Assembly (NCBI GenBank): GCA_002269645.1
Contig: NIVC01000891.1
Span: 353,783-417,782, forward strand
Reading direction: 5' to 3'
Source: Macrostomum lignano
Lineage: Eukaryota
DNA length: 64,000 nucleotides
The position numbers and the translations under genes are program-made. Under the pieces are notes generated by a model. The model was not told the origin of the DNA. It saw nothing but the letters and a program-made list of their open reading frames with translations, and made no database searches. Shown one piece after another: positions 12,930-64,000 of this stretch; within the stretch, counting starts at the first letter, position 1, and every line of letters begins with the position of its first letter.

Positions 12930-13634
12930 CTCCAAGCGTTCGGCGGAGGCGAGCTCTCAAATCCCTTCGAGCTGCAGCGGCAGAGCAGCGACCACGAAGG
13001 AGTTGAAGGCTTTTCCGGCGGTAAAAAATTGGCAAAGCAAGACACAGCAGGGAGCAAATTGAGAAACCGGTTGAGCAGGGGGGGGGGAGCTCAGCGGCCT
13101 TCATTGGCTGGCCCAATGCTCTCCAAGCCCTCTCCGTACAGTAGCGCTTCTGTCGGAGCTAAAAGTACACCGGGTTTTTTATCCGCGCGTTCTTTGATTG
13201 TCATCCGTCACCCGAGGACAGAGTATTGGAGTTGGGAGGGGGAGCGGCGCGATGGAAGCACAGGTTGGTTTCGTGTCGGACAAGAGGCTCCAGAGTAAAG
13301 ATATCCGCGTAGATATTGGAGACCAGAGCTCACTGGAGCTTGAGAGCGTAGTGTGGTGTTCCGTTTCCCGATGCTAATCTGAGGTGCAAATCGATGCAAA
13401 GATGAGGAATGAGGCGCATGCTTACGGCGAGGGAGGAAAATTCCCATTGGCCTTTGAGGGCAGCGAAAAACACTCAAAACTGACAGGTAAAAGGGAAAGC
13501 AGAAAATAGTGGTAAGGAGAGGAAATGGAGACCAAAAGATAAAAGATTGCGAAGTAGTTGGATTAAGAGAGAGAGGGTATAGGGAAAGGGAGAGTAGGGG
13601 AGAGGGAGACGGAGGGAGAGAGATGATAGAGAGA

Positions 13635-17930: not shown

Positions 17931-18788
17931 ACACAGGATACATGTAGGCAGCCAGATAAGGCACTGAGCATGTCTTTTTTACTGCACTTTTACGAGACAG
18001 CCAGTCAGACAAAGATGTCAACCTTCTAAACACTGGCCACGGCAGCATTAGCTGGTGCGGAAAAATCAATTACCGCAACTGTGTTCCATCTAGGCTGCGC
18101 TGCCACGCAATTTCAATCAGCGAAGCCACCTGCCTCAACTGCCTCTGGGCAAGGAGAGCTCAAGTTGAGCTTTCGTCACATGGAAAAGCAAATGTACCGA
18201 TGCTTGAGTTGAAAAACTTTCAATTTTGAGAGTTCTGCGATCACAGTGAAAATTTAAAACACAGACAGATAGACAGACAGAGTGAAGGACCAGAGACTGA
18301 GCATAGCAGAAGCCTGTCAGACCAACGCAGATCAAAGAGGTGAGTCCCAAATCGCAGAGGAACTCTAATTATAATTGCAACGGTCGTCAGCACACGGATA
18401 CGGGCCGTAGATCCCAGATGAAAGCCGTCACCGCATGCGCGAGGTTGGAGATGGGGCATCGAGTAAAAAAGGGAGCCGAGGAGATGCAAAGAAAAGTTAG
18501 CACTGACCAGCACGGATTACGAGCTAACCAGCAGTAGAGCTTGTACTGAACGTCAGACCATACTCGTACTTACAGGCCTTACTATGAAGCATACAGGTAG
18601 CCGGGGGCTGCATTAAACAGACATGGCAGTCACGTGAATTTCCAAATGCTTTGTTCTAAGACCGACAAGCCTTTCAAATTGATTAGCTTTTGCAATTGGC
18701 ATTTAAATTTTACAGTAACAATATGTGCAATGTAAAAAATGAAATTCGCCTACCTGTTTAACAGACTGAGGAGTCAGTGACGGCTCTG

Positions 18789-41500: not shown

Positions 41501-43025
41501 TGATACTACCAATCTCATGGTTGTTAGAAGTATATGAAAAAGTGCAATTATAAATAAATATTTACGTTTTTATTCGAAAGCCAAAGTTTGTTTATTCAAG
41601 CAAAACAACAATCAAAACTCGATTTTTGTTAACATAAGGGGTGTCCAATGTGCCAATGGTGCCCTGCTTTTATACAGACCCATAGAGGACCCGGGTGGGT
41701 CCTCTAAGAGAGGCTAATAAAATTAGTAGGGCTTGAATTGAATAATATGCTGTGAAGACTCAAACTTGTAAGCCAAGAAGGCTAGAATTAGGGTTAGCAA
41801 TTAGGCAACTATAGACATTAAGAAATGTGTAGGTATTAAATAAATAAATCATGTAGGTGCTAATAGTAGCTTAAAACCTATCACTTGGTCCCTTAGAATG
41901 CCATAATTTTGGACATAAGAATTAAAATATAGTGTTTTACTGATTGGGAACTTGTTCTTATTGGAAAACTTCTCATAAATATAGAAATATTAATATAAAC
42001 AATACTAATAAATTTGCCTATTAAAACTTTGTGGCATTTGTAGGATTTTAGAAGAAGGAAGTATACCCTGCAACATACGTGCAGAATATTTATGTGCTAA
42101 AGGATTTAGGTCTGAAATAAATGACAATAAATGTTATGTGAAGATGGTTTATATGTTGTTTTTTCAAAGCGTCACATATAAATTTTCAGTAAAAAGACTT
42201 CTTGGTCTGTGAGGTAGATTTTTTACTTATATGCTTGCATTTTTTAACTCATAATATAAATGATTAGCACAATTTCTTAAATATCATGACTTGGCAAATT
42301 ATTCATAATAAAAGGTTTTCTTACAAGGATTGTATATAAAGAAGAGACTGTAATTTGAACTTTCACTGAGTAGCTATTCCTTTTTTTGTTGGTTGAAATC
42401 ATACAAAAAGTAATTGAACTAATAAAAGAAGAAGCTTGGAAATTATTAATTTAATCATCATCTTACATAGTAAAAAAAACTTTTTGGGTGTAATTTTTTC
42501 ATCAAAAAATCTGCCAATGTATTAACTTTTTTAATATAGAAATACTTGCAATTTGGAATATCCAAAGTTCGTTCTTCATGAAGTAATCCTAACAAAATAA
42601 GTTGTGGTTTTTTGATAAGAGCAGAATGCTTCATCATTTTATGGAAAATTGAGTTCTGACTATTAGTTTGATCATTTCATATATCAGGCATATTTAGCAA
42701 TAAATCGGTACGCCTGTAGTACAGAACCTTCGGGGTAGTAAAATCACAGTGTAATAGCATTGCAAGCTGCAGTTTTTGCATGTGCGATTATTTTAAAAAA
42801 TCGAATGCCAAATTAAACATGTACAAAAAACGATAATACAAAGAATATTTAACAAATCATCTATCACGAAATCAAGGATGTCATTTCTATTATTATCAAT
42901 TTTTTAAACTTAAAAGTATCTCTGCAAGTTTATTCTGCATTTTCATATCTAATTTTGTTATAAAAAGGGGTGTCCAATGTGTCCAATGTGCCAGTGCCAG
43001 CTTTTATACACACCCGTCCTCTATG
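38528..43025. mobile_element. Foldback non-autonomous DNA element with ~1.3-kb inverted arms (38924-40257 and 41705-43016)
   Basis: The arms align as reverse complements from CGGGTGTGTATAAAAGCTGGCAC to ...AGCCTCTCTTA, around a ~1.45-kb AT-rich spacer with no recognisable coding sequence. Confidence 0.85.
38544..38917. mobile_element. MITE, 374 bp, ~45-bp imperfect TIRs, 4-bp CTGG duplication
   Basis: GTCTCCCTAAAACACGC...GCGTGTTTTAGGGAGAC; CTGG at 38540-38543 and 38918-38921. Confidence 0.75.
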
Positions 43026-44518: not shown

Positions 44519-47500
44519 ATGACAAGAAAATGTTGTATCCCAGGTTGTAATAGTAACTATAAAAGTGGTGAAAAAGCTACTGTTTATGCATTTCCAAAAG
44601 AATCCAATGAGTATGGACTTTGGGTACAAGCCATTCCAAATAATTTAAAGGTAAATAAAGTTTTAAATGTTTTGTTAAAAGAATCAAATAATTTTTTTGT
44701 TAAATTACCAGATATTTGATTATTTTTAATTGCTATTTTTTAATTTGTTTTAAATGTACACCAATCTATACACCATAGGTACAGAATCCATCGAAATTCA
44801 TGGGTATCTGTCAAAAACACTGGCCTGAAGGAGCACCCATGAAGCAAGTAAAGCGTTTTGCCCGACCTAAGCATCCACCAAGTATTTTTGCGACTACACC
44901 TAAGTCAGCCATGCAGCTTATTTGTGCAAGTAAGTAAATTTTTTGCTTAACTGAACCCCTTGTAATCTTTGAATTTGATATTTACTTGTGGTTCAACACC
45001 AATTTTTCTAGGCAATTCAAGGAATGCCACCCAGCGTGGTGTACTTTTAACCCAACGTGGTCAGTTTAAAGACGAGTTGGAGCCATTTAATGAAGCAGAC
45101 AGAATAGGTTCTTGGCCTACCTTTACTCAAAAGGCTCCTACTCTTGAGTTCGTCTCAAATGGACAATGGTTATTGCAGCTGAATGAGTCTGAAGTGCATT
45201 TTTATATTATTCAAGATCGGAAAATCCAAGCATCCCTGATGGTTCAGGACAATTTTTGCGTGAATGCATACCGCTCTAATACCCCAATCAGTGTGTCACA
45301 ATTTTTGGGATTTCAACATCGGCTTGAGCGGTTTAGCCAACTTGAAGCAGTGCAAAACTATATCAGGCATGCTGATCTCGACACAACCAGCGAATTCAAT
45401 TCTCATCTGAAGGCAATCAGCGAGTTGTGTGAGGGAAATACTCGCCAATCTTTCCTGGTTCGTCAACTTTCCCTTAGTCATTCTGATCCAAAGGGAGTGC
45501 GCTACATGTCACAAGATATTTTAGAAGCTGCTAAGTTGTATTTTGCTGGTCGCAGCGGTTATCGTGCTACCCGAAGCATTTTATGCATCCCTCATCCTAT
45601 TACACTGAAGCAGCATCTTGGTGGACTAGGAAACGTCGGCACAGATAATGATTGCCAAAAAATTATCCAAACCCATTTGGAACGGTGCACACCACTACAA
45701 CGATGCTGCTCAATTATATTCGACGAAGTGTATGTGAAGCCATCTCTGCGTCTGAGTGGTTCACATGCAGTTGGATTTGCAGAGGATTGCTCAGACAAGT
45801 TGGCGCGAACGGTTCTGGCTATAATGATTAAACCGTTTATGGGAGCGGATGCTTTTGTGGCCCGTCTCATACCTATTTATAGCTTGCAGCCTCAGTTTCT
45901 GCACAGCCAACTGCTGCACCTGATCCGAATTATTCATCTATGTGGTGGCACGGTGATAACTTTAATTTGCGATAACCACTTTATCAATAGGCGCTGCTAT
46001 GAATTTTTTCGAAGAGATTCTCCGGATCAATTTGATGAGGCTTGGCGAGTCGCTAATCCGGCCGACACATCAATTCCTTTGTTTCTGATTTACGATACCG
46101 TGCACATTTTAAAGAACATACGAAATAATTGGATCACGCAAGGACATAAAGAGCTCCAGTTTACGCCAGAATCTGGTGGTCCGTCACTTATTGCCAAATG
46201 GAGCCACCTTGTCGAACTTGAGGAGACCTCACGTGGAAATATTGTGCGTCCTACTACTCTGAGTCCGACGGCGTGTAACCCATCTGCATTAGAACGCCAG
46301 AAGGTGAATCTTGTGCTAGACGTTTTCAGCGAGAAGACTGTTGCAGCACTCCGAGTTATTGACAGATCAAGTACAGCCGAGTTTATTGAAATAGTACTTA
46401 ATTTTTGGAAAACGGTCAATGTGAAGTCTCCAAATTCGCATATCAGACTTTTTGACAAGTATCGGGCCCCGATTACATCTACAGACTCTAGTAATCTGGT
46501 GAATCTAATGAAGTTTTCTGACATGGTGGAACGCATGCCAGGCGGCCGGGGTGCCACTCGCGCGCGTTCACTGACGACGGAGACTAAAAAAGCTATCATT
46601 CAGACAGTACACGGCTTAGTTGGTATCAGCAACTATTTGCTATCGAAATGCGGATTTGCGTACGTGCTGCTGGGTAAGCCTATTCACATGACTGTAATTC
46701 CGTGTTTGGTAGCGCTATTTTTTGTGTCAGCGGCGCTATTAGAGTCGCACTAAATGAAAATGATCAAAATTTTAGCGTGCGCTAAATTTGCAGCAGCAAA
46801 GCGACACCAAATAACCAAGTTTAATTTGATGTAGGGATTCCTAAATCAATTTTGGTGATTTTTTAGATTAAACTGTGCCAAATGATTCCTCAAACCATAT
46901 CTAATTCAACCATCATATTCAAGGTGAACTTCAATCGGACCGATTGGAGGGCGAATTCGGGGTATACCGACAGAGTCACGGCGGATGCTACTACATATCA
47001 GTAGACCAGATCCTGTCTAGTGCTCGCCTCCGTCGCATGCAGCTTTACAGCAAGCTGCAAGTGTCGACTGCAGACACTCGCGAGCATCAACAGTCGTTGT
47101 GTTGTTCCGCCGGGATGACAGATGCCGACATGGATGCTATGGACGGGCTTCCAGATAAAGTGAACAATATTACGCAGGAAGAACAAGCATCTTTGTATTA
47201 CGTCTGCGGATATATTGCTTTCAAAGATAGCCTTGATTCTCCGTACGATGGGCCAAGCACCTACGATAATTCCTGCGAATTCGCATCAATGGTGTCGCGT
47301 GGCAGGCTAAAACATCCTCCAGAGTGGTTGCTACTTTTTTCCTTTTTTGCTACTCGTTTTTTTGCCACACTAATTCCAGATGCGTCAATAACACAGCCAA
47401 AGCATTTGCTACAATCTATGACGCGTTTTTTGATGTGCCAATTGAGACTGCTTTATTGCAACGCATCTCGAAGAGACTAACGAACATATTTTTTTAAGGG

Positions 47501-47576
47501 GCTCGTTAGACGAGACTCAGAGCCTCAGAGAGAAACGAGCTCCACCGCACGTCGGCTGCGCAAGTTGAATCCTTAA
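44519..47576 (+). CDS. P-element superfamily (THAP9-like) transposase; exons 44519-44650, 44779-44929, 45012-46673, 46924-~47576; two homopolymer frameshifts in the last exon
   Basis: Spliced THAP zinc finger CCIPGC...FP...W...CQKHW...PSIF. Catalytic-type motifs IIFDE, ICDN, YDTVHILKNIRNNW and QSDRLEGEFGVYRQ; C-terminal SRGRLKHP. GT-AG introns with phases 0,1,1. Confidence 0.9.
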
Positions 47577-47891
47577 CAGATTTTTTGGAGATTTTACAAT
47601 CATTTTACAATTTGTTTTTTATTTTCCAGTTTGCTGTTTGCTTTTTCAGCCTGAATCCTTTGCTCATAACGTTGCTCGTTGCTCATAACGCTATAATTTC
47701 TATATTCCCTTTTTTGTTTACTATTTTCCCTTCTATCATAGTTTAAAGTTATACATGTACGCTTGCATTTTCAGCCCAAAAACCTTCATAAATTTATTTT
47801 TGTCTAACTTACATTTTTGTAATACTTCGGGTGTGTCATATTATTAAGTAGCTAATGTCAATGTCACTACCAGAGCAGATTCACTTGCCAT

Positions 47892-48023
47892 CAGTGGCGC
47901 AGCCAGGGGGGCCCGGGCCCCCGAAATTTACCCCCCCCCATTCGGAGAAAAAATTCTAAACCCCCTCCTCTGGGTGTTAAATGCTCCACCCCCCCCCCGA
48001 AATAATGTCTGGCTGCGCCACTG
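47892..48023. mobile_element. GC-rich hAT-like MITE, 132 bp (second copy 61233-61369)
   Basis: TIR CAGTGGCGCAGCCAG / CTGGCTGCGCCACTG; no clean TSD seen. Confidence 0.75.
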
Positions 48024-49807
48024 CTCATCACCATCCAGCCAGAAAATCCGAAACCACCTTACAGTTAGTTGTGCGACCGTGCATTGTCTATCTGCCACAG
48101 AAGCTCGTCCAGGTGAATCGTGAATTGTGGACCTGATTAGAGCGTGCGACTTGTCGAGATTCATGGTGATTTTTGTTCGCTGCGTAGACGAGTTTTCAAC
48201 GCGTATGCGTTGCGCTGGCTATAGCTATCGGCTTAACGAATTATTGCCGTAGGTTGGGCCATAAACATCCAATGCATGTCTCGATTGCACTGGTATCGAT
48301 TCACTATCACTAAGAAACTTTGCAGCTGCTCTACATGCACGCGAACACCCGACACACCCAAAATAATGACACACCCGAAATAACTCACCCGCATTTGATG
48401 TAGAGATACATTCTGAAAAAATAATGTTGGTCTTCCACAGAAAATATCGAGCGCTTGATATTGTCTGGTCTTCCAGTTTTGTCTAAATAAGCTCTTTATT
48501 ATTGGTGCACATTGTTCTGTAACTGTTTACTGCATTCATTTAAGCAAGTTTTCTACAAGCTAAAGTACTTTTGTGCTGCTTGATAATTGCAATGCCAGGA
48601 CCAAAACTTCAAAGGCATGGTCAAGAGAAAAGGAATCAGAGCGCCACAATACGCTCACCGAAAAATGTTTGCAGCAATTAGAGCACAATTTGCATAACGT
48701 TAATGTATAAGATTCTTAAGATTTCTAGACCTATACTGCTAGAGTTTACTAAAACTTTTATAGCACATCGTACCATATCAGATAGTCTAGGATGAAAAAT
48801 TCCTGATAACTGAGCTAGCTACTAGTTGAGCCGCAATCGATTTCGATAATCGGCCTCCAAAACTCTCCATCATTTTCAGTGACCTCCAAGTCAAAACTGT
48901 TGACTACGCACTCAGTATTTAGCTGTCAGTTTACTGCATACATTTATATACTATACAAAACTGCATTTTATTTACTCAATGTTTCTCTTGTATTTGCCTG
49001 TTATGAGCTGAGCATTTTACCAGCCTTTATTACTTATATTTTCGGCATAGCGCATCTTTGTGCTGGGTTTCATTTTTGTGCATATGAAAAGAAGTGTTTA
49101 AGAAACAATTATATTTTTTATATAATATCAGTATGTATACAGAATATATCTATTCATTTCTTTTTTAATACTTTTTAATACACATAATATATATTATAAT
49201 CAGCAAAAATTCCTTGCAAGTAAAATTATGAAAAGTTCACATTGTACAGGAGAGAAAAAAAGTTTTGTCTGTTAATTTTACTCAAATAAAAGTGAAGTTC
49301 TTCACTTTGGGAGTTAATCAATATGAAAGACAATGCCAGCAAAAATGAAAACTGTACCAATGAGTGTGGAGAGCCAGTGTCAGCCAGCAAGCAGTTGAAT
49401 AACCGCAGTCACATCTTGAAGCAGTGCACAATAGATCAGCATCAATGCTTGATGTTGTCTGGTTAGCAGCCAGAGCATAGCCATCTTTTGTATGTTGACA
49501 GCCAAACCAATTGCTGCCACAAAAGCAACCAGCCTGCCTAGCTTCCTAGGGACAAGTGGGCTGGACATAGAACACCTTGCCAGTCATTAGGTTGGACAAA
49601 TATGAAGCATTGGCCAATACAAAGCATGGTAGATAGGCTTAGAAGGTAGATAAGAGACCAGGAAAGTAGTTCAGGCTTGTTGCTAGTGGCTGGAAGAAAG
49701 AAATATTAAAAGGTGAACTACTCAGGTTTAATGTAAAAATGGATGCTGGTCAAAGATATACAAAAGTTATTTAAAATTATATAAGGCATTAAATATATTT
49801 GGCAACT

Positions 49808-50562
49808 TGTCGTAGGGCACTTTTATTATTTTCTAAATCCCACCGCTATCGCCAAATTTGTTGCAGGGATAATTAACTATTATAAACTATTCCACCGATG
49901 TCACCAAGTTGTTGTAGGGGTTTGGCTATAATTCTAGAATTTCATTATATTAGCTTATTGGATTCGTTATGAGCTACTAAAATACGGCGTAACTGAGGTA
50001 AGACTATGGGCTTTCACGTAAGCACGGATTGCCCTGGTAGCGCGCAGTGCCCGAGCGGCAAGACACTGTTCAGCTAGGGGGAGAGGGGGAAAGACTAAGT
50101 CCTAAAGCAGCGTCCTCCAATGGATCGAGGTTGCCCGGTGAATTTCAATTTCCTCTTACGGATTTGCTCTTGTCAGGTACGACTTTCTCATTGGTTGTTC
50201 AATTCGAATATTACTAATGGGATATATCTCCCTTTTCTATTGGCTCTACGCCTCTGCTCTTTGCAGGTACGCAATTGGCTCTTAGACTACTCGTCTTTTT
50301 CTCTTGGTAATTTCTACCTTCTGTCCAATGAGCATTCGCTCTTAGTTTTCTAGCAAATGAAGGAAGGCTTGAAACACTTCTTCAATTTTATAGGCAATTC
50401 GCCTATGAACCAGAAGGTGTAAAACTTCGGTTGCCTCTCTGGGCACAAAATTCGCTTCTATTTATACTAAAATTGGGGTGGGGAACAAGACGCGTTTAAA
50501 CAAAGTTCTAAAAATATACGTTTCCATAGTAAAGGCGGGAATTTAAAACTTGGCCTCTCTCA
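49808..50562 (-). repeat. 3' LTR (755 bp)
   Basis: Matches 58540-59295 apart from one G in a run (only difference noticed); several CCAAT/ATTGG boxes. Confidence 0.95.
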
Positions 50563-51070
50563 ACTGGCTTCCCTAAGGATAATTTTCGAATGGTAAAAAA
50601 AATAAAAAGTGAGAAAATTATTCTATTTGATACAATGAGTAGTCTATAACGCACGCCTAACAAAAAATGCAACATAATGTGAGTATTAATGGAATATAAA
50701 AGCGCGAAATTAGGTGCACAGAAAATGTGACAGTCATAAACTAAATACGGAAAGTGTGAACTAAATATGGATGCACGCACAAAGTTCAAACAGTTATGGT
50801 GAATAAAACGGTGTAGATGATAAAACAAATGTGAAGTGGTTTTAATGAGTAAGCAAAAACACAAAGTTAGACAGTAGTAATTAGATAAGCAATTTTATAG
50901 ATAGCACAATAAAAAAATGGAGCACAAATGCCAGCAAATATATGAATAAGCAGAAGGCTACGCAATTTTATTAAAGGATGAACGCACACTACTAATTTGT
51001 AAAATTTTTACGATAAATTGCAGAGGCAGAATTATATTGCAAATGTTAATATTTGGCAAAGTCACCTGTA

Positions 51071-52432
51071 TTAGTTCATATTAAACTCCTCTGGTAACCC
51101 ACGCTCGTCCGTCCAGCCGAGAAGATCTCCCATCCAGCGTACTTCGATACGCAGGAGGATCCCGTAATACGGGTGGCCCGCCTGCTGAAGCGCGTGGAGA
51201 GTGTAGGCGACCGCTCGTCGCCATGCCGCAATTGCTTGCTCGGGCGTGTAGCTGCTCATCAACATCTGTAGTACTGGCCGAATATGCGCCCGTTGCGGCA
51301 GAGCGCGGTCAAGACGCACGTTGGCAATTCGCATCAAATAAGCCTTGATGAGGGCTATCATTCGCTTAAAGTGCGCATGGCGGCCTTCGGGTATTTCAGC
51401 CAGAGCCCGGCTCAAGTTGGCACCGAAGTCATTGACATCAGCCGGGCGAGGGAACTGGCTCGATTGTGGTTGAACTTGAAATTGCGCCTGGTTCGCGTCC
51501 ATGCCGCAAGCAGCGTTTGATGATGGAGGCACCGTTAATATCGGCTGCGGTGGTTGCTGTGACTGTGGCGCTGGCGACGGCTGCTGCGGGGGCTGCTGCG
51601 ACGGCTGCTGAGCTGGCGACGGCTGCTGTGAGTGCGGCGCTGGCGTCAGCTGCTGCGGGGGCTGCTGTGACAGCTGCTGAGCTGGCGGCAGCTGCTGTGT
51701 TGGCGCTGACTGCGGCGGACGACGCTGAGGGCGCTTCCGCGGAGCAGGCTGCCGCTGGCGGCTTGAGTGTGCTGTCGCCTGTGTCGGCTGTCGCTCTTGC
51801 AGCGGGGTCCGCGGCAGAATCCGCCGTACAGCCGGGCCGAGCCGCATCATTATAGTGGAGCGCGCCTCTGTTGGACGCCGAGCCATTGCCGTGGCGCTCG
51901 CCTCTGGTGCCTTCGCAGCCTGTCGCCGCAAAATAGCAGCCCGATTCTCAGCTGCCTGTGGCACCGGAATCTTTGAAGGGGCTGCTCGCTTAGGCTGTGT
52001 GGGCGCTTGCACTGGCGAGCCGACCCTTTTTACGACAGATCGCAGCCGGCCTCCAGGCTTCGATGGTTGCGTAGGCTGTCGCTCGGGCGCCTCCAGCTCT
52101 TGACCATCATTGATGGGCGGCCGCTTCGGGACCGTACTGCGATTGTCAACTTCTGCAGTTGCTGCCGTGGTGGCGCTCGTGCCAGCTGCCTCACTACTGC
52201 CAGTGTCGGCTGTTGCTTCCGTGTTTGCCATGCCGGCCGCTCTGCTGTCTATTTCGACTGTTGTGCTTGTCACTTCGACTGGTGCGTTAGCCATTTCGGC
52301 TGCTGCATTCGCCCTTTCGGCTGGTTCGTTGGCCCTATCGGCCGTAGTACTATCAAGTCCATCGAACGTATCAAATGGATCCTCAATATCGAGTAATTCT
52401 CTAAGCCACGAAAAATCCTCTTCTTCACTCAT
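51071..52432 (-). CDS. Extra ORF3 of the Gypsy element (453 aa), function unknown, not env-like
   Basis: Intact ATG-to-stop ORF between pol and the 3' LTR, same sense as pol. Acidic N-terminus, A/T/Q/P-rich middle, ~120-aa non-repetitive C-terminal region; no signal peptide or TM stretch seen. Confidence 0.75.
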   Translation of the reverse strand: MSEEEDFSWLRELLDIEDPFDTFDGLDSTTADRANEPAERANAAAEMANAPVEVTSTTVEIDSRAAGMANTEATADTGSSEAAGTSATTAATAEVDNRSTVPKRPPINDGQELEAPERQPTQPSKPGGRLRSVVKRVGSPVQAPTQPKRAAPSKIPVPQAAENRAAILRRQAAKAPEASATAMARRPTEARSTIMMRLGPAVRRILPRTPLQERQPTQATAHSSRQRQPAPRKRPQRRPPQSAPTQQLPPAQQLSQQPPQQLTPAPHSQQPSPAQQPSQQPPQQPSPAPQSQQPPQPILTVPPSSNAACGMDANQAQFQVQPQSSQFPRPADVNDFGANLSRALAEIPEGRHAHFKRMIALIKAYLMRIANVRLDRALPQRAHIRPVLQMLMSSYTPEQAIAAWRRAVAYTLHALQQAGHPYYGILLRIEVRWMGDLLGWTDERGLPEEFNMN

Positions 52433-52497
52433 TGCTCTTCCGAAATTCTCGGTCTCTCTGGAAATCTGTGGGGCTTCCGGGGCGTCAGGGGTCTTGC

Positions 52498-52695
52498 TTA
52501 TATAAGCCTCTCCGGGGAGGGGTCCCGGGAGAGGGATCGTGGCCTCCGATTTGCTTAGACAAGCAAATTTCCAAATAACGCGCTCTCATTGGCTCTCCGC
52601 ACTCAATTCCTTTCTTCCAATGGGATTGCTTCCTCACGCCTTCGCGCCTGTGCGCGCCTTCCTTCTGCTTCCCGTCTCTCAATAGGTCAGATTGG
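52498..52695 (-). promoter_or_regulatory. Putative internal promoter for ORF3
   Basis: TTATATAA at 52498-52505, ~65 nt upstream of the ORF3 ATG; GC-rich tract; CCAAT boxes at ~52588, ~52617 and ~52691. Confidence 0.45.
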
Positions 52696-54301
52696 GCAAT
52701 AGGCGCCACACTGTAATCAGCCTTTTCAGATAGCACGAGCATCTGTTCGGGGGCTTGATCTGACTACGAGTGTTGTACCTCTTCTCGGGCCTAGCCGCCT
52801 CTTCGGTAATCTCGTTTGCCTCTTGCTCAGTTTCGAGCTCTTCTCTTTCTTCCTCTTGCATTGGCTCTGCTTCCTCTACCTCACTGCCTTCTTCCTCAAA
52901 GATCTCACTATCAGACTCACTTGATGCTTCATCCTCGCTTTCTCTTTCTGACTCTGAGTTATCATTGTCTCGGAGATTGCATTGCCAATTCAGGCGGTCT
53001 TCATCTTCTGACTCTTCAACTTCTTCTATCTCTTCCCTCCGGGGGTGGCTTCCCTTAGCTTGTGCTTCTGCGGTGCCGCGCTGGCTTCCCTTAACTTTAG
53101 GCTCTCTCGTAGCTTTATCTGACTGACTGGCGGCAATCTCTTTAGCTGAATTTGGTACTACTGCTAAATTATCTCTATGCACTAACAGCTCCTTTCCTAT
53201 TAACTTTCCTTCTTCCTCCTTCTGTACTTTAAATACTACCTCTGAGATCTGCTTTAATACTCGATATGCTGATCTTCGCTGTCTATGGAATTTATGCGAC
53301 TCCTCGTTATCTAGCTGCGGGTTATTAATAAGCACTAAACTTCCTAACGGTACTTCTTTTGGCTGTTTGCTAGTTTCAGCGGCGGTCTGTCTTTGGTTTA
53401 TCACCTTCTCCAATTTCTCTTTTACGAGTTTCTGTGCGACAATTAGTCTTTCGGCATGTTCGGCAACATAGGATGGATAGCCTGCGTAGTGCTTTGGGTC
53501 CTTGATCTGATTGTCCATAGGTAACACAGCTTCCCTTCCAAATAACAGGAAATGGGGTGTGAAACCTGTTGTCTGATTGACACTGGTTCGGACAGCAACT
53601 AGCGCAGCTGGAATCATCAGATCCCAGTTATTGTGGTCTTTCTTGATAAGGCAGGTAATAATAGACTTTATCTGTTTATTGAACCTCTCTACCAAGCCGT
53701 TGCTCTGGGCATGATAGGGGGTAGTGAATGTCTGTTTGACATTATAGAGTTCACAGAAAGCCTTGAACTGTCTGCTGGAGAATGTTTTACCATTATCAGT
53801 ATGAATCCAGTGGCACTGTCCGTACTCACTGAAGATTCTCTCCTGCAGGATTTTAATGACAGTGTCTGATTTCTGGTTGCGGATTGGGAAGGCAAAGGGG
53901 TATCGCGTGGTGCTATCAACCACTGTGAGCACATATCGATGCCCTCTTCTACTCTGCTTGGATATTGGCCCGATTATGTCAATATGGAGGCGGTGAAATG
54001 GCTCGCTAATAGGGAAGGATTGGATGGGGGCTTGGACCTTATGTCCTCGTTTGCTTTCCAGGCAGGGTATACATTCAGAGATGTACTTCTCAACTGCCGT
54101 GGTCAGACCGGGTCTCCAAAATCTCTCGCGGACTTTTTGGATGGTCTTGTCTCTGCCTAAGTGTCCAGCTAGTGGGCTATCGTGGAGATCGCCAAGAACT
54201 AGTCTGTCTAATGACTCTGGCAAGACAACCTTCCATTTTTCGTCCTCTTTCACGATTAACAATTCGTTTTCGATTCTCATAGCCTCGTAGGCTTTGCACA
54301 T
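52679..54301 (-). CDS. pol: Pol part 3: integrase (HHCC + DDE) with acidic C-terminal tail, no chromodomain
   Basis: LHDSPLAGHLG...CIPC, HIDIIGP, TDNGKTF and NGLVERFN motifs; separated from part 2 by a 1-nt shift in the G5 run at 54315-54319. Confidence 0.93.
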   Translation of the reverse strand: MCKAYEAMRIENELLIVKEDEKWKVVLPESLDRLVLGDLHDSPLAGHLGRDKTIQKVRERFWRPGLTTAVEKYISECIPCLESKRGHKVQAPIQSFPISEPFHRLHIDIIGPISKQSRRGHRYVLTVVDSTTRYPFAFPIRNQKSDTVIKILQERIFSEYGQCHWIHTDNGKTFSSRQFKAFCELYNVKQTFTTPYHAQSNGLVERFNKQIKSIITCLIKKDHNNWDLMIPAALVAVRTSVNQTTGFTPHFLLFGREAVLPMDNQIKDPKHYAGYPSYVAEHAERLIVAQKLVKEKLEKVINQRQTAAETSKQPKEVPLGSLVLINNPQLDNEESHKFHRQRRSAYRVLKQISEVVFKVQKEEEGKLIGKELLVHRDNLAVVPNSAKEIAASQSDKATREPKVKGSQRGTAEAQAKGSHPRREEIEEVEESEDEDRLNWQCNLRDNDNSESERESEDEASSESDSEIFEEEGSEVEEAEPMQEEEREELETEQEANEITEEAARPEKRYNTRSQIKPPNRCSCYLKRLITVWRLLPNLTY

Positions 54302-54306
54302 TTGCT

Positions 54307-55413
54307 TTAGCAGCGGGGGTCGGTTCTCTGGGGCACTGGGATTTCAACTTTCGCACATTTCCATTGCACGAGGGTTCGGATCGAGGGGTCCTCTCTCTGG
54401 GCTTCAACGATTTGGTCACGCTTCAGGGGGACTGGGAGGTAGTCAGTCAAGAGCTTATCGACTCTTCGTACCTCGCTCTCTCGTTCGTGTCTGGACATTA
54501 CAGAGATTTGGCTCGATTGCGCAAGGCTCAAGCTCAGTGGCTCCAAATTGTTATCCTGAACACAATTACAAGGGGCAGAGGGCTGGGGGACTGAATGGCA
54601 CGGGGGCTGGGCGGCTAAATGGTTCAGCGAGAGGGGGGTTGGGGCAGGGCAATCGGGTATTGAGTCCTCAACTGGCGGCTGGGCCTGGCTTGTACAGCTG
54701 TCCTCTGCCTTTGCCTTCTGACTCAGTTCGGCCAATTTGGCTCTGTTGGGGAAGGGAAATTCTGGGTTGGCATTATCGCCTTGAATCACCAATTCAGTGT
54801 TTGATTTATCACTCTGGCCTGTTTCGGCTGTCTCAGCGGGTCTCCTGGACAAGCTGTCCGCGTTGGTATGCTTGGCGCCACTTCTGTGTTCAATGTCAAA
54901 TTGGAACTCAGTCAGGCGCTCAATCCAACGTCCTAAGATACCCTGGGCTTCAGTCTGCCGTAGCAACCAGAGGATTGCTTTATGGTCAGTTCGGGCAAGA
55001 AATCTTTTTCCGATCAAATAGAAACGAAAGTGTCTCATAGCGTCTACTAGTGCTAACAACTCTTTTCGAGTGATAGGGTAGCGCTTTTCCGACTCTTTCA
55101 TTGCGCGGCTAAAATACGCAATAGGCCTTTCGATACCATCGGACTGGATCTGGCCTAAACAGGCCCCAATCCGTCCTTCACTGGCATCGGTATCCAGAAC
55201 CATTTTGACATTTTCGTCATCTACGAATTCAGGATACGCAAGCACCTCTGTTGACATCATGCGCTGTTTTAATGATTCAAAAGCCTTATCATGCACATCT
55301 GTCCACTTTGCTGAGAAATTTTGCACTCCCTTTCGGGTGAGCTGAAACAGTGGATGCGCGGCTTCAGCATAGTTTTTTACGAATCGACTGTAATAATTAC
55401 ACAGTCCTAGAAA
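54307..55413 (-). CDS. pol: Pol part 2: RT connection and RNase H
   Basis: FLGLCNYYSRF, LDTDAS, PIAYFSR, KELLAL, TDHKA and NADSLSR motifs. Confidence 0.92.
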   Translation of the reverse strand, partial: FLGLCNYYSRFVKNYAEAAHPLFQLTRKGVQNFSAKWTDVHDKAFESLKQRMMSTEVLAYPEFVDDENVKMVLDTDASEGRIGACLGQIQSDGIERPIAYFSRAMKESEKRYPITRKELLALVDAMRHFRFYLIGKRFLARTDHKAILWLLRQTEAQGILGRWIERLTEFQFDIEHRSGAKHTNADSLSRRPAETAETGQSDKSNTELVIQGDNANPEFPFPNRAKLAELSQKAKAEDSCTSQAQPPVEDSIPDCPAPTPLSLNHLAAQPPCHSVPQPSAPCNCVQDNNLEPLSLSLAQSSQISVMSRHERESEVRRVDKLLTDYLPVPLKRDQIVEAQREDPSIRTLVQWKCAKVEIPVPQRTDPRC

Positions 55414-57487
55414 GCTGCAGCTCTTTCACCTCTTTCGGTTTGGGCCAGCTTTTGATCGCTTCGATCTTTGCTTCGTCAGTTCGAATACCATCTCTACCTA
55501 TCACGTGGCCTAAATATTTTAGCTCTCTATGGAACAAATTGCACTTTTTCGCTCTAAGCTTTAATCCGGCATTGATTAGTCTCTGGAAAACTTCTTTCAA
55601 ATGAGACAAATGGTCTTCGAACTGCTTTGAATAAGTGACAATATCGTCAATGTAGGACATAGCAAACTTGTGCTGAATTCCAGCAAGTACTAAGTTCATT
55701 AGCCTCTGAAAGGTACCGGGGGCATTGGATAATCCCTGTGCCATCACCTGGTACTCGAACTGTCCTCTAGTCAGGGTGGAGAAAGCTGTCATGAACTTAT
55801 GTTCTTCCTTAATTGGGACCTGCCAATAGCCTGAGTTAAGATCGAGGCTGCTGAAGAATTGGCTTCCTGTGAGATTAGAGAAGGTTTCTTGGATGTTTGG
55901 GAGAGGGTAGGGGAAATAGTTCACTCGCGAGTTTAACACTCGGAAATCGCTGACAATGCGAATGGTGCCATCTTTCTTTGGCACGATGACTAGTGGGGTG
56001 GAATAGGTGGAATAGCAGGGACGGATGAGATTTTTCGCTAGCATATCGTCTAGCTGGGCGTCAACCTGCTTTTGGAGATGGGGAGGAATTCGGCGGGTAG
56101 GGATTCTCACAGGGGTCTCGTCTTTCAAAGAAATTTCGTGGGTCACTAAATGAGTTAGCCCCATATCGAGGTCATTTTGAGAGAAAGCTTCTCGGTGTTC
56201 TTTTACTAATGCTACTACTGCTGCTCTCTGTTCAGTAGTCAATTCAGGACCAATGCTAATTTCACTCACCCACTCTTCTTCAGTGGCTTGAACTTGATTG
56301 ACACGGGCTGAGTCTTGTACTTCTGCTGCTGCTTGCTGATCTGATGTCGGCGGCGGCAAATAGAGCAGATCCTTGGCCTTCACGGGCTTAGCGAGCCCTA
56401 CCAGTGCAGATTTGGGCAACTTGACTTCAACGGGGTGCCGATTCACAATTTCGACGACTGCGGTGCCCTGCTGCATGGTGACCAGAGTCGGGATCATTTC
56501 GATCGTTAGCTCTTTGGCTCTTACGCCATCTCCAATCGTTTCTATGGTCATTGGGGCGCCATAGTTAGCTTCGGCATTTTTCGCCATTCTTACTGGAATG
56601 CGCAGTGCGCTGTTCGCAGGGATAGTTGCCTTTTCTTGAGTGTACACTCTGCAGACTCGTACAGGCATGTGCGTGTACTGCATAGGTATACAGGCTCCTT
56701 CTTTCAGGATCAGCATCCCTTTTGTCAAGTGAATGCTTTCGCACTGCTCAAGAAAGAACTCCATTCCCAAAATGTTGTCACATTCGTGGCCACACAATAG
56801 GAATGTTATTTCAATTCGAATGTCTCCAAACTCAACAGCAACGGAAATTTCTCCTTCTAGCTGTACTGTGGCTCCGTCAAAAGTAGATACTCTTCTACTT
56901 GTACTTTTAATTTGCTCAGGCTTGAAAATTTTAGACCAGACTGACTTACTCAGGAAATTATTGCTAGCTCCAGTATCTAGCAGGAAGTCAATCTCTTGGC
57001 GATTGATGTTGCCTACTACGATTGCTTCGTAGCTCTTGGGGCTGATTAGCTCGAGTTTGGCATTGGCTGGAGTCTTCTTGGATTTGCGGCGGCGGTTTCG
57101 ACGCGACTTCTTGGGCTTGACTGTCATCGGCGTGATGACTGAGGTCTCGGCGGCTGACACATTGGGCGAAGTAAGCAATTGGGATGCTGCGGCGGCAGAT
57201 GCGGGTGCTGCAGCAGCGGGTGCTGATACTGTAGACATAGATGATGCAGGCATAGTAGACGCAGTTGGTGCAGACATAGTGGACGCAGTTGGTGCATTTC
57301 GCATAGATACAGGGTGCATTTTCGCATTGGGTGCATAAGCATTTCGCTTGCGCCTTTTTACAAGTTGCCATCCTCCGTTTGCTGTATCACAAGCGGGTTG
57401 GCGGGGATTTTGGGAGGCCTGCATTTCGCTTGGGGCTCTGCTTGAGGGACGTGGCCTCGACTTCCGACCCTCGCCATTCAGTTTCCC
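55397..57487 (-). CDS. pol: Pol part 1: linker, aspartic protease and reverse transcriptase, entered by -1 frameshift
   Basis: LLDTGAS, YSTPLVIVPKKDG, SDFRVLN, LDLNSGYWQ, QGLSNAPGTFQ and YIDD motifs. The frame breaks at ~55415 (LQ|SFLGLCNYY). Confidence 0.93.
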   Translation of the reverse strand, partial: GKLNGEGRKSRPRPSSRAPSEMQASQNPRQPACDTANGGWQLVKRRKRNAYAPNAKMHPVSMRNAPTASTMSAPTASTMPASSMSTVSAPAAAAPASAAAASQLLTSPNVSAAETSVITPMTVKPKKSRRNRRRKSKKTPANAKLELISPKSYEAIVVGNINRQEIDFLLDTGASNNFLSKSVWSKIFKPEQIKSTSRRVSTFDGATVQLEGEISVAVEFGDIRIEITFLLCGHECDNILGMEFFLEQCESIHLTKGMLILKEGACIPMQYTHMPVRVCRVYTQEKATIPANSALRIPVRMAKNAEANYGAPMTIETIGDGVRAKELTIEMIPTLVTMQQGTAVVEIVNRHPVEVKLPKSALVGLAKPVKAKDLLYLPPPTSDQQAAAEVQDSARVNQVQATEEEWVSEISIGPELTTEQRAAVVALVKEHREAFSQNDLDMGLTHLVTHEISLKDETPVRIPTRRIPPHLQKQVDAQLDDMLAKNLIRPCYSTYSTPLVIVPKKDGTIRIVSDFRVLNSRVNYFPYPLPNIQETFSNLTGSQFFSSLDLNSGYWQVPIKEEHKFMTAFSTLTRGQFEYQVMAQGLSNAPGTFQRLMNLVLAGIQHKFAMSYIDDIVTYSKQFEDHLSHLKEVFQRLINAGLKLRAKKCNLFHRELKYLGHVIGRDGIRTDEAKIEAIKSWPKPKEVKELQLSRTV

Positions 57488-58443
57488 TGATTCGGGTTTC
57501 TTGGCGGAAATCGGTGCTGGTTGGGTCTAGCCGATGGTGGCTGAGACTGCGCTTGGAACCTGGGGCGCTGGTTCATTAGCGGGGGTGGCTGTGGCTGATA
57601 CGCCCTGGGCTGATATCGCACAGGCTGGGGCTGAGGAGCCATTTGCTGATAACGTACAGGCTGAGGCTGTACTACAGCAGGCTGATAGTGCATTGGCTGA
57701 GTAGCCATTGGCTGATACGCCTGCACCTTCTCTTTGCGGCTTTCTGCCTGTAGCTCCTGAATGAGTTTTCGCTGCTTTTCCAGCTCCTCTTTCTGCTTCT
57801 TGACAATTTCTGTCAGACTCTCCTTCTCCCCTTCTTCATCTTTCATCACTCTTACTCCGTTCTTGTGAGACATGTGCCAAGCAGCTTCAATGCGCCTCAA
57901 CATGCGCCTAGCTTCCTGCAAGCTAGCTGGCTGCGCAAAAATCAGTTTCTCCCTTGTATCTGAGGGGATTCTGACACCTTTTATGAATTGTTCTACCACC
58001 TCCTCTTCTCGTTGCTCGGCATTCATGTTTGGGAATGCTCGGCTTGACAGCTCTATCAGGGCATCCGCGAACATGTCGGTCGCCTCATTTCTTCCCTGCA
58101 TCCTTCCCCTAAATTCTTCACGGAACTCGGAAGCACTTCCTAGCCTACCAAATCTTTCTACAAGCCTATCCTTGAACTCCTCGTAGGTCAGCTCTTCTGG
58201 CAAATTCAATCGCTGAACTGCAGCGAAAGCAGTGGACAAGTCCAAATTAGCTACTAACTCAGTTTTCCTATTGGCTACGTCTATTCCTTCGGCGTCACAT
58301 CGCTGATCAAAGGCTACCAGCCAGATTCGGATGTCTTGGCTGGGGGTATACTTCTGAATTTTAATATGTCTCATGGGCCCTAGTTCTAATCTATTCCTCA
58401 ACTCTTCTGCTAATAGTCCAATAGCATCGTTGATTGCTGCCAT
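57478..58443 (-). CDS. gag: Gag (321 aa), no CCHC knuckle, ends QGN* at a GGGAAAC slippery site
   Basis: First ORF after the PBS; helical capsid-like region (WLVAFDQRC...FRGRMQGRNEATDMFADAL...QFIKG) and a Q/P-rich tail. Confidence 0.88.
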   Translation of the reverse strand: MAAINDAIGLLAEELRNRLELGPMRHIKIQKYTPSQDIRIWLVAFDQRCDAEGIDVANRKTELVANLDLSTAFAAVQRLNLPEELTYEEFKDRLVERFGRLGSASEFREEFRGRMQGRNEATDMFADALIELSSRAFPNMNAEQREEEVVEQFIKGVRIPSDTREKLIFAQPASLQEARRMLRRIEAAWHMSHKNGVRVMKDEEGEKESLTEIVKKQKEELEKQRKLIQELQAESRKEKVQAYQPMATQPMHYQPAVVQPQPVRYQQMAPQPQPVRYQPRAYQPQPPPLMNQRPRFQAQSQPPSARPNQHRFPPRNPNQGN

Positions 58444-58524: not shown

Positions 58525-58536
58525 CCGCTGCCACCA
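58525..58536 (-). promoter_or_regulatory. Primer-binding site complementary to the 3' end of tRNA-Leu
   Basis: TGGTGGCAGCGG is the complement of ...CCGCTGCCACCA, the 3' end of metazoan tRNA-Leu(AAG/TAG) as recalled. Confidence 0.85.
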
Positions 58537-58539
58537 AGT

Positions 58540-59295
58540 TGTCGTAGGGCACTTTTATTATTTTCTAAATCCCACCGCTATCGCCAAATTTGTTGCAGGG
58601 ATAATTAACTATTATAAACTATTCCACCGATGTCACCAAGTTGTTGTAGGGGGTTTGGCTATAATTCTAGAATTTCATTATATTAGCTTATTGGATTCGT
58701 TATGAGCTACTAAAATACGGCGTAACTGAGGTAAGACTATGGGCTTTCACGTAAGCACGGATTGCCCTGGTAGCGCGCAGTGCCCGAGCGGCAAGACACT
58801 GTTCAGCTAGGGGGAGAGGGGGAAAGACTAAGTCCTAAAGCAGCGTCCTCCAATGGATCGAGGTTGCCCGGTGAATTTCAATTTCCTCTTACGGATTTGC
58901 TCTTGTCAGGTACGACTTTCTCATTGGTTGTTCAATTCGAATATTACTAATGGGATATATCTCCCTTTTCTATTGGCTCTACGCCTCTGCTCTTTGCAGG
59001 TACGCAATTGGCTCTTAGACTACTCGTCTTTTTCTCTTGGTAATTTCTACCTTCTGTCCAATGAGCATTCGCTCTTAGTTTTCTAGCAAATGAAGGAAGG
59101 CTTGAAACACTTCTTCAATTTTATAGGCAATTCGCCTATGAACCAGAAGGTGTAAAACTTCGGTTGCCTCTCTGGGCACAAAATTCGCTTCTATTTATAC
59201 TAAAATTGGGGTGGGGAACAAGACGCGTTTAAACAAAGTTCTAAAAATATACGTTTCCATAGTAAAGGCGGGAATTTAAAACTTGGCCTCTCTCA
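58540..59295 (-). repeat. 5' LTR (756 bp)
   Basis: Followed on the minus strand, after 3 nt, by the PBS. Confidence 0.95.
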
Positions 59296-59657
59296 AACTC
59301 AACTAATATACTAGTAATTATATAGCTACAAGTATAGCCATATTGTTTAAAAAAATTGAAGTTGATTTGAGAAAATCTAAAAAAAAGCTTCTACTAAAAC
59401 AAAAGATGAAATAATTCAATTAAGAATTTAAAAAATTAAGGATATCAAATTTATTTTTGTAAAAAAAGTTAATCATTATTATATTAAAATAAAGAACAAG
59501 CTAATAATATAACAACTAGCTAATCAGTGGAAACTTTAAGGGAGTGACACAGGACATGTATAGTGTACCTTGTTAGGTTTAATTTTTTAAATGGAAAATG
59601 CATCATAAAATACATGTGCCTTGGTAATCTAAAAAAACAAATAATATAATATGTACC

Positions 59658-60460: not shown

Positions 60461-60838
60461 GATGCCGACATGGATGCTATGGACGGGCTTCCAGATAAAG
60501 TGAACAATATTACGCAGGAAGAACAAGCATCTTTGTATTACGTCTGCGGATATATTGCTTTCAAAGATAGCCTTGATTCTCCGTACGATGGGCCAAGCAC
60601 CTACGATAATTCCTGCGAATTCGCATCAATGGTGTCGCGTGGCAGGCTAAAACATCCTCCAGAGTGGTTGCTACTTTTTTCCTTTTTTTGCTACTCGTTT
60701 TTTTGCCACACTAATTCCAGATGCGTCAATAACACAGCCAAAGCATTTGCTACAATCTATGACGCGTTTTTTGATGTGCCAATTGAGACTGCTTTATTGC
60801 AACGCATCTCGAAGAGACTAACGAACATATTTTTTTAA
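60461..60838 (+). pseudogene. 5'-truncated duplicate of the P-transposase C-terminus
   Basis: Matches 47121 onward but has 7 T instead of 6 T at FSFF, which restores CYSFFCH...RLTNIFF. Confidence 0.85.
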
Positions 60839-63800
60839 GGGGCTCGTTAGACGAGACTCAGAGCCTCAGAGAGAAACGAGCTCCACCGCACGTCGGCTGC
60901 GCAAGTTGAATCCTTAACAGATTTTTTGGAGATTTTACAATCATTTTACAATTTGTTTTTTATTTTCCAGTTTGCTGTTTGCTTTTTCAGCCTGAATCCT
61001 TTGCTCATAACGTTGCTCGTTGCTCATAACGCTATAATTTCTATATTCCCTTTTTTGTTTACTATTTTCCCTTCTATCATAGTTTAAAGTTATACATGTA
61101 CGCTTGCATTTTCAGCCCAAAAACCTTCATAAATTTATTTTTGTCTAACTTACATTTTTGTAATACTTCGGGTGTGTCATATTATTAAGTAGCTAATGTC
61201 AATGTCACTACCAGAGCAGATTCACTTGCCATCAGTGGCGCAGCCAGGGGGGGCCCGGGCGCCCCGAAATTTACCCCCCCCCATTCGGAGAAAAAATTCT
61301 AAACCCCCCTCCTCTGGGTGTTAAATGCTCCCCCCCCCCCCCCCGAAATAATGTCTGGCTGCGCCACTGCTCATCACCATCCAGCCAGAAAATCCGAAAC
61401 CACCTTACAGTTAGTTGTGCGACCGTGCATTGTCTATCTGCCACAGAAGCTCGTCCAGGTGAATCGTGAATTGTGGACCTGATTAGAGCGTGCGACTTGT
61501 CGAGATTCATGGTGATTTTTGTTCGCTGCGTAGACGAGTTTTCAACGCGTATGCGTTGCGCTGGCTATAGCTATCGGCTTAACGAATTATTGCCGTAGGT
61601 TGGGCCATAAACATCCAATGCATGTCTCGATTGCACTGGTATCGATTCACTATCACTAAGAAACTTTGCAGCTGCTCTACATGCACGCGAACACCCGACA
61701 CACCCAAAATAATGACACACCCGAAATAACTCACCCGCATTTGATGTAGAGATACATTCTGAAAAAATAATGTTGGTCTTCCACAGAAAATATCGAGCGC
61801 TTGATATTGTCTGGTCTTCCAGTTTTGTCTAAATAAGCTCTTTATTATTGGTGCACATTGTTCTGTAACTGTTTACTGCATTCATTTAAGCAAGTTTTCT
61901 ACAAGCTAAAGTACTTTTGTGCTGCTTGATAATTGCAATGCCAGGACCAAAACTTCAAAGGCATGGTCAAGAGAAAAGGAATCAGAGCGCCACAATACGC
62001 TCACCGAAAAATGTTTGCAGCAATTAGAGCACAATTTGCATAACGTTAATGTATAAGATTCTTAAGATTTCTAGACCTATACTGCTAGAGTTTACTAAAA
62101 CTTTTATAGCACATCGTACCATATCAGATAGTCTAGGATGAAAAATTCCTGATAACTGAGCTAGCTACTAGTTGAGCCGCAATCGATTTCGATAATCGGC
62201 CTCCAAAACTCTCCATCATTTTCAGTGACCTCCAAGTCAAAACTGTTGACTACGCACTCAGTATTTAGCTGTCAGTTTACTGCATACATTTATATACTAT
62301 ACAAAACTGCATTTTATTTACTCAATGTTTCTCTTGTATTTGCCTGTTATGAGCTGAGCATTTTACCAGCCTTTATTACTTATATTTTCGGCATAGCGCA
62401 TCTTTGTGCTGGGTTTCATTTTTGTGCATATGAAAAGAAGTGTTTAAGAAACAATTATATTTTTTATATAATATCAGTATGTATACAGAATATATCTATT
62501 CATTTCTTTTTTAATACTTTTTAATACACATAATATATATTATAATCAGCAAAAATTCCTTGCAAGTAAAATTATGAAAAGTTCACATTGTACAGGAGAG
62601 AAAAAAAGTTTTGTCTGTTAATTTTACTCAAATAAAAGTGAAGTTCTTCACTTTGGGAGTTAATCAATATGAAAGACAATGCCAGCAAAAATGAAAACTG
62701 TACCAATGAGTGTGGAGAGCCAGTGTCAGCCAGCAAGCAGTTGAATAACCGCAGTCACATCTTGAAGCAGTGCACAATAGATCAGCATCAATGCTTGATG
62801 TTGTCTGGTTAGCAGCCAGAGCATAGCCATCTTTTGTATGTTGACAGCCAAACCAATTGCTGCCACAAAAGCAACCAGCCTGCCTAGCTTCCTAGGGACA
62901 AGTGGGCTGGACATAGAACACCTTGCCAGTCATTAGGTTGGACAAATATGAAGCATTGGCCAATACAAAGCATGGTAGATAGGCTTTAGAAGGTAGATAG
63001 AGAGACCAGGAAAGTAGTTCAGGCTTGTTGCTAGTGGCTGAAGAAAGAAATATTAAAAGGTGAACTACTCAGGTTTAATGTAAAAATGGATGCTGGTCAA
63101 AGATATACAAAAGTTATTTAAAATTATATAAGGCATTAAATATATTTGGCAACTCAACTAATATACTAGTAATTATATAGCTACAAGTATAGCCATATTG
63201 TTTAAAAAAATTGAAGTTGATTTGAGAAATCTAAAAAAAAAAGCTTCTACTAAAACAAAAGATGAAATAATTCAATTAAGAATTTAAAAAATTAAGGATA
63301 TCAAATTTATTTTTGTAAAAAAAGTTAATCATTATTATATTAAAATAAAGAACAAGCTAATAATATAACAACTAGCTAATCAGTGGAAACTTTAAGGAGA
63401 GTGACACAGGACATGTATAGTGTACCTTGTTAGGTTTAATTTTTTAAATGGAAAATGCATCATAAAATACATGTGCCTTGGTAATCTAAAAAAACAAATA
63501 ATATAATATGTACCCAGTGGCGCAACCAGGGGGGGGCGGGGGGGGGCGGTCGCCCCCCCCCCTTAGGCGGGGGACCGAAAAAAAATCAAAGGGGGGACCA
63601 AGCGAATTTTCGCCAAAAACAGAGCCACCCCTCCGCCGCCCCCCCTCCGCGGACTTTACCCTCAGAATCCGCCCCCCCCTTGAAAAATTTCTGGTTGCGC
63701 TACTGTATGTACCTTTTGTAATACCTTAGTTCTATATAGGTACAAACTAAAAGCAATAATAAATTATATATAGTTACTTAATGGCCAATGATTCAATAAA

Positions 63801-64000
63801 TTTAAATATCTTACGGTACTAAAATTAAAAACATTTTTTTTCAAAGTTTATATATTTATTATATAAATTAAAATATCTAACTAATTTCAAGAAAAAAGCT
63901 TTCAAATTTGTAATATAATAATGATATTGCCTTTTAAAATGAAATTATAAATGAATTAATTGTGTTTTTTATAGATACCTAGTAAAAGTGGTACATAGTG
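60461..64000. repeat. Copy 2 of the tandem duplication unit, with empty Gypsy target site; runs off the window
   Basis: Starts abruptly inside P-transposase exon 4; reads GGC-AACT-CAACTAAT at 63148-63162. Confidence 0.9.

Follow-up and report, generated by a model that had tools for sequence, protein, structure and literature searches.

Structure of the element and of ORF3

The window, the whole 64,000-nt stretch of Macrostomum lignano DNA that was analyzed, holds a young, complete Ty3/Gypsy LTR retrotransposon with LTRs, a primer-binding site (PBS), a polypurine tract, and a target-site duplication, and with the coding order gag, protease, RT, RNase H, and integrase. A third gene, ORF3, has the integrase frame on one side and the 3' LTR on the other. 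The features are listed below by window position and strand.

58540..59295, minus: 5' LTR, from the pairwise match to the other LTR
58525..58536, minus: primer-binding site, which we take to be of the leucine-tRNA type
57478..58443, minus: gag, 321 aa, weak Retrotrans_gag match
52679..57424, minus: pol (protease, RT, RNase H, integrase), three frames, breaks near 54310 and 55400
52433..52600, minus: predicted internal promoter, TATA word at 52497-52504 (72 nt ahead of the ATG), CCAAT at 52588-52592
51071..52432, minus: ORF3, 453 aa, non-env third gene, ATG to stop
52358..52432, minus: acidic amphipathic N-terminal segment, residues 1-25, fitting activation-type and class 1d export-signal patterns
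51914..52087, minus: stretch of conserved motifs in the middle of the protein (residues 116-173), comprising PxRxxT[RQK]P, a basic-SVV word, and a helix predicted at 161-173
51074..51436, minus: C-terminal five-helix domain, residues ~333-453, net charge +5, no known family or fold
50563..50575, minus: polypurine tract, adjoining the 3' LTR
49808..50562, minus: 3' LTR, from the pairwise match to the other LTR
49804..49807, no strand: 4-bp target-site duplication, second copy at 59296-59299

The LTR pair has 0 mismatches and 1 internal indel over 755 aligned bases. An empty version of the insertion site lies at 63151-63154, and one contig from a public run spans the site and joins across it without the element. 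The empty site comes from a local duplication (47121-49807 vs 60461-64000), which is either a tandem duplication or assembly redundancy. Two PBS-like words inside the LTR, at 49848-49859 and 49900-49911, recur at the corresponding positions of the other LTR; they lie 52 and 104 nt from the LTR 3' end, and each resembles an older LTR end. Such words, found in 4 of the 29 LTRs checked, suggest a possible stepwise extension of the LTR. The window also contains a P-element/THAP9-like transposase gene (44519-47580) with Pfam TNP-like domains and apparent introns, as well as a 16-bp G/A-rich tandem array of ~250 units and a foldback-like inverted repeat with 1.2-kb arms (13570-18300 and 38921-43019).

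A preliminary description of this DNA had proposed an uninterrupted 453-aa frame in the env position with no signal peptide or transmembrane segment, an acidic N-terminus, a disordered middle, and a helical C-terminal domain of no recognized family, all of which held up. No stop-free frame as long as ORF3 was obtained in 2,000 base shuffles (longest, 327), and overlapping plus-strand frames at 51520-51855 and 52113-52505 were treated as shadows of ORF3. By hydropathy, neither the signal peptide nor the transmembrane anchor of an Env was found, and no hydrophobic segment was detected in ORF3 (best 19-residue Kyte-Doolittle mean, 0.66) or in 27 homologues (maximum, 1.11). The N-terminus has 11 D/E within 30 residues, with a helix at residues 8-13 predicted by AlphaFold2 at low confidence. 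The linker was likewise modeled with low confidence apart from one helix at 161-173, and the C-terminal domain was modeled as five helices with a pLDDT of 90 and a pTM of 0.85. Every ORF3 allele has three parts: a helix at the acidic N-terminus, a linker rich in Pro and Gln whose repeats vary and which contains short conserved motifs, and the domain. Where charge was examined, 23/23 proteins had the acidic helix, the Pro/Gln-rich linker, basic words, and the basic folded domain (net, +1 to +9).

Two further points stood in part. The basic patch RKRPQRR is present but is not conserved as such; the conserved middle features are instead PxRxxT[RQK]P (29/32 proteins), short KR[PAQ] words, and the helix at 161-173. 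The intactness of ORF3 had also been set against a broken pol. The window pol does lie in three frames, but a single frame spans ORF3 in 3 and pol in 2 of 9 close copies, and contigs from public runs differ by an indel from the window at one pol break in 4/4 runs and at the other in 2/2 covering runs. The breaks are therefore copy-specific or assembly errors, and because either gene is broken among the sister copies, the contrast carries no weight.

Distribution, selection, and allele exchange

Pfam gave no match for ORF3 or for 27 domain homologues, and a PDB sequence search with ORF3 gave none either (best E, 0.064, on a coiled stretch). No match to the window ORF3 was found in a search of 5.8 billion sequences, and among the longer proteins of that set the domain profile retrieved only two Macrostomum records. 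Against 1.84 billion representatives, the profile gave 7 matches, consisting of 5 Macrostomum records, 1 weak repeat, and 1 protein of another assembly that is ~36% identical to the nearest M. lignano ORF3 allele. For the domain fold, Foldseek found no match above background in PDB and BFVD, the best VIA-align Z (7.3) was inside the helical-bundle background, and the ESM Atlas gave no match; such empty searches do not prove a new fold. No fusogen family (Pfam) or fold match above background was found, and no homology to Tas was found in Pfam, the 1.84-billion library, PDB, or BFVD. ORF3 was not found described in the literature, and Repbase/Dfam, subscription journals, unread supplements, or an earlier classification paper cited in PMC12801592 may catalogue it. 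A Gmr1/Osvaldo cluster of M. lignano is given in PMC12801592, in whose text no match to the term "ORF" was found.

The domain and RT trees were built with rows from the M. lignano genome, in which the C-terminal domain has at least 150 matches. The domain was listed downstream of RT in 96/109 copies with RT identity of at least 75%; among the 13 copies with no listed domain, 7 were checked, of which 2 carry the domain and 5 have no LTR pair in the stretch, and 2 further copies sit at contig ends. A sister lineage (~62% RT identity) has its own ORF3, whose product combines an acidic helix with a C-terminal domain that is likewise helical; this ORF starts 2-5 nt past pol with an acceptor-like sequence ahead (judged by eye). 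Its domain, with 83 genome matches, aligned to the ORF3 domain over 109 columns (pairwise E, 4.5e-4; probability, 33%) and is a probable, though not certain, distant homologue. In a second sister lineage (L120-L125 and L128; 60% RT identity), near-identical RTs are accompanied by one or the other of two small non-env ORFs, of 245-279 aa and 175-199 aa with RG-rich tails, and these had no match to Pfam or to the ORF3 domain.

Nei-Gojobori counts were made on 37 chosen pairs. The domain dN/dS was 0.07-0.29 among element pairs with measurable dS, dS being saturated in the rest, and in five pairs third codon positions were 41-48% identical vs 83-94% at first and second positions. The C-terminal domain of ORF3 is under purifying selection. 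Conserved across families, with dN/dS far below 1 and no env or host-gene match, ORF3 is well supported as the functional non-env accessory gene that had been proposed. The RT dS was, unexpectedly, 0.03-0.24 between elements whose ORF3 domain dS was saturated or at least 1.5. Gag was 98-100% identical between elements with ORF3 domains only 43-60% identical, and elements whose ORF3 alleles differ strongly have gag-pol and the 3' LTR part in common. Across five pairs, identity was 90-98% in the 400 nt ahead of ORF3, 85-94% in the first 200 nt of the LTR, and 69-74% in the domain DNA. Flanks this similar around divergent domains point to old ORF3 alleles being swapped as a cassette while gag-pol was homogenized. 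We infer from these sequence comparisons that balancing or frequency-dependent selection may act on the alleles; small-RNA escape as the driver is a guess.

Gene content was tabulated for 54 loci picked from match lists (a non-random sample), of which 35 have gag and pol, 12 a short divergent gag only, 4 pol alone, and 3 neither. The 12 pol-less elements are mostly 5-6 kb, with LTRs 98.6-100% identical and ORF3 kept. Their gag is ~191-197 aa, with a Cys/His motif at its end in 7/8 aligned, and an 11-nt motif was found in 12/12 of them and in none of the other elements examined. All ten that were placed in the domain tree fall in the clade without the window element. Several have ORF3 and LTR in common with an autonomous element, and in some the ORF3 is near-identical to that of the autonomous partner (dS, 0.01-0.04), so retention of ORF3 could reflect recombination hitch-hiking.

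The domain also occurs alone at a single fixed locus of the host, as a 118-aa intronless ORF (records BOX15_Mlig026206) on three contigs with matching flanks (G000: C846, 44212-44568; C3012, 52820-53176; C2203, 58541-58897; loci L071-L073 and L077-L082). No gag, pol, or LTR pair was found within 20 kb, and a nearby exon is presumably ETS-like. The ORF is 39-42% identical to the element domains and lacks the last conserved residues of the domain. It retains the promoter motif, a TATA word, and the 11-nt motif of the pol-less type, from which we conclude that it derives from a pol-less element. One contig covers it, in 1/4 runs guessed to be RNA. The three copies are too similar for selection to be measured, and the ORF is, on its sequence, possibly a domesticated gene. 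Five other identical copies of the domain (L045, at G000:C862:30301, and C1600, C3925, C4040, and C4932) are possibly a second fixed remnant; in 10 kb at L045, neither gag nor pol nor an LTR pair was found.

Promoter region, U3, and N-terminal signals

TATA words were found 57-111 nt ahead of the ORF3 ATG in 11/20 families, and CCAAT boxes upstream of ORF3 in the sub-clade of the window element. No canonical TATA word was found in three tested families of the L050-L070 sub-clade or in L070. The region upstream of ORF3 in the other main clade has a 23-nt motif that also lies just ahead of the host linker-histone H1 gene and has 248 exact genome matches vs 0 for a control. The same motif is the core of several unrelated minisatellites with 28-41 bp units and up to 17 exact copies (L103-L111, L113-L115, L118-L119; L112:3208-4093). 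On these grounds it is read as a host motif and was dropped as a candidate element-specific binding site.

The 7-9-mers common to the ORF3 promoter of a family and its own U3 were not in excess (ratio, 1.02-1.07; p, 0.32-0.36), and extension to the whole LTR gave a single nominal p of 0.037 among 6 tests. Tas-type response sites can be degenerate. Among the 37 pairs listed, U3 could not be aligned (score, ≤0.18) in any of the 17 with RT identity of at least 94% and domain identity of at most 55%, and domain identity was at least 72% in all 10 with a U3 score of at least 0.75; the rank correlation of U3 and ORF3 divergence was not significant (p, 0.085). This co-divergence may be mechanical, since U3 is physically linked to the 3' end in reverse transcription. 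The word TTGTTT[AT]A was seen in U3 (first 260 nt of the LTR) of 17/20 families (L039-L096 and the window), a count made without a chance control, and some U3s have what we take to be STAT-like and E2F-like words. No run on record as RNA holds the window stretch; in the four runs guessed to be RNA, contigs span pol as well as ORF3 and are uninformative on start, strand, and level.

In the N-terminal helix, the activation-type pattern hydrophobic-xx-hydrophobic-hydrophobic was found in 17/23 proteins vs 6.2 expected and was missing in six proteins of one sub-clade. The class 1 export-signal pattern was found in 14/23, including the window protein, vs 3.3 expected by shuffling, and was missing in 9/23. 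As the rows are related, these counts are not independent. Judged by such patterns, the helix would be about equally compatible with a signal for nuclear export and with an activation motif.

Candidate roles and comparison with known systems

The reading we favor, tentatively and at a little under even weight, is that the ORF3 protein may work inside the nucleus to switch on transcription of its own element at an early stage, by analogy with foamy virus Tas, ORF3 being a lineage-wide accessory gene under selection in a Macrostomum Ty3/Gypsy clade. It is favored for the position of the gene, the predicted internal promoter, the activator-like architecture, the divergence of U3 with ORF3, and the retention of ORF3 in pol-less elements. 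A short ORF3 mRNA would be made from the predicted internal TATA/CCAAT promoter. The folded, mildly basic C-terminal helical domain would target the element, at U3 or internal-promoter DNA, directly or via a host factor, and the acidic N-terminal helix and Pro/Gln-rich linker would recruit co-activators, giving a feed-forward switch for full-length gag-pol RNA. Pol-less partners might keep ORF3 because it activates themselves and their helpers, and the domain-only copy of the host, having no acidic end, might compete with ORF3. A much less probable extension is a three-way conflict resembling that of complex retroviruses, in which ORF3 would be the Tas-like switch of autonomous elements, pol-less gag and ORF3 parasites would wake their helpers, synonymously recoded old alleles would evade small-RNA silencing, and the captured activator-less domain would serve the host as a dominant-negative repressor. 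The preliminary description had likewise suggested a transactivator or an anti-silencing factor; conservation and selection uphold its accessory gene, and the assigned function stays conjectural, as the helix also fits an export signal and no family-specific site shared by promoter and U3 was found.

The strongest competitor, unlikely in our estimate but to be taken seriously, is a shuttle protein of the Rev/Rex/CERV kind, in which the N-terminal helix would be an export signal or a UAP56-binding helix and the basic domain would bind element RNA, licensing export of unspliced genomic RNA. The excess of class 1 patterns and the basic words in the ORF3 middle agree with it, and CERV of Caenorhabditis elegans Cer1 provides a Ty3/Gypsy precedent (PMC10309623, partial text). 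It has to accommodate the proteins in which the class 1 pattern is missing, and an allele-specific RNA target would be confined to the ORF3-3'UTR-U3 block, because gag-pol and the 3' LTR part are common to elements with divergent ORF3. Within the sequence and structure databases searched, no sequence or fold link to CERV was seen. A family-specific anti-silencer, either VANC-like or a shield against piRNA repression, would keep the element chromatin open with no direct activation. Old divergent alleles kept and exchanged while gag-pol is homogenized, with the low RT dS given above, would be expected under such conflict, and known TE anti-silencers are family-specific (PMC6719617, partial text); we nevertheless consider it improbable, as pairwise counts show purifying and not positive selection on the domain, and no chromatin- or RNA-binding fold match and no repeated family-specific target motif were found.

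We give a similarly low weight to ORF3 as a motif-rich hub that steers the cell cycle or another host process, or as a particle-associated Gag cofactor. Short linker motifs are conserved, a DEN[EA]xP-like one being common to the sister lineage, the promoter motif also occurs at the histone H1 gene, and gag and ORF3 are exactly what pol-less elements retain. The motif meanings are putative, however, and near-invariant Gag beside strongly divergent ORF3 domains argues against a tight Gag-ORF3 interface. A decayed env, a neutrally carried captured host gene, or a chance GC-rich frame is already largely refuted and very improbable, despite the env position and the domain-only copy at a host locus: ORF3 has no hydrophobic segment, third codon positions are far less identical than first and second positions in the pairs compared, homologues are limited to Macrostomum records and one other assembly, and the element-derived motifs upstream of the host copy indicate that it came from the element.

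Whether ORF3 is the retrotransposon's own activator or an export factor is directly testable in M. lignano, a model animal with transgenesis and RNAi, in which ORF3 constitutes a new protein family; its fold is predicted with confidence and found no match. Natural experiments on TE-host and TE-TE conflict are provided by the elements that lack pol, by the swapping of ORF3 alleles, and by the truncated copy fixed in the host. Regulatory accessory genes mark complex retroviruses, and there are few reports from invertebrate LTR elements, CERV being the clear case in the literature examined. Plant TR-GAG elements are pol-less LTR elements that retain gag; those of M. lignano differ in their extra accessory gene, in having LTR and ORF3 in common with autonomous partners, and in their animal host.

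Foamy virus Tas/Bel1 resembles ORF3 as an accessory gene adjoining the 3' LTR with an internal promoter (predicted for ORF3) and feed-forward activation (proposed for ORF3), and its DNA binding and activation have been shown (PMC3185757, partial text). It differs in that no sequence or fold match links the two, the element of ORF3 is an env-less invertebrate retrotransposon, and activation by ORF3 is argued by analogy. CERV, needed for export and not for transcription of Cer1, likewise belongs to a novel protein family, is an accessory protein encoded by a Ty3/Gypsy-type element, and has candidate signals for import and export, but it is a 517-aa spliced product with exons common with gag, three folded domains, and a Cys-rich loop (PMC10309623, partial text), whereas ORF3 is a gene of its own at the 3' end and has a single small helical domain. 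A conserved extra ORF between pol and the 3' LTR is also found in bdelloid rotifers (PMC5408684, partial text) and among the additional ORFs of plants (PMC7264820, partial text); the rotifer ORF3s are GDSL esterase, DEDDy nuclease, or membrane proteins (PMC5408684, partial text), and M. lignano ORF3 is none of these, with no family match. Oikopleura Tor elements have a third gene after pol with an internal promoter, which encodes a transmembrane Env (PMC4402516, partial text). VANC of Arabidopsis VANDAL is a TE-encoded accessory protein with family-specific divergence like that of ORF3, but it belongs to a DNA transposon and acts on DNA methylation via repeated motifs (PMC6719617, partial text); no such motif or homology was found for ORF3. 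A third gene other than env is of a known kind; what appears to be new is the ORF3 protein family, together with the pol-less elements, the exchange of alleles, and the truncated copy in the host.
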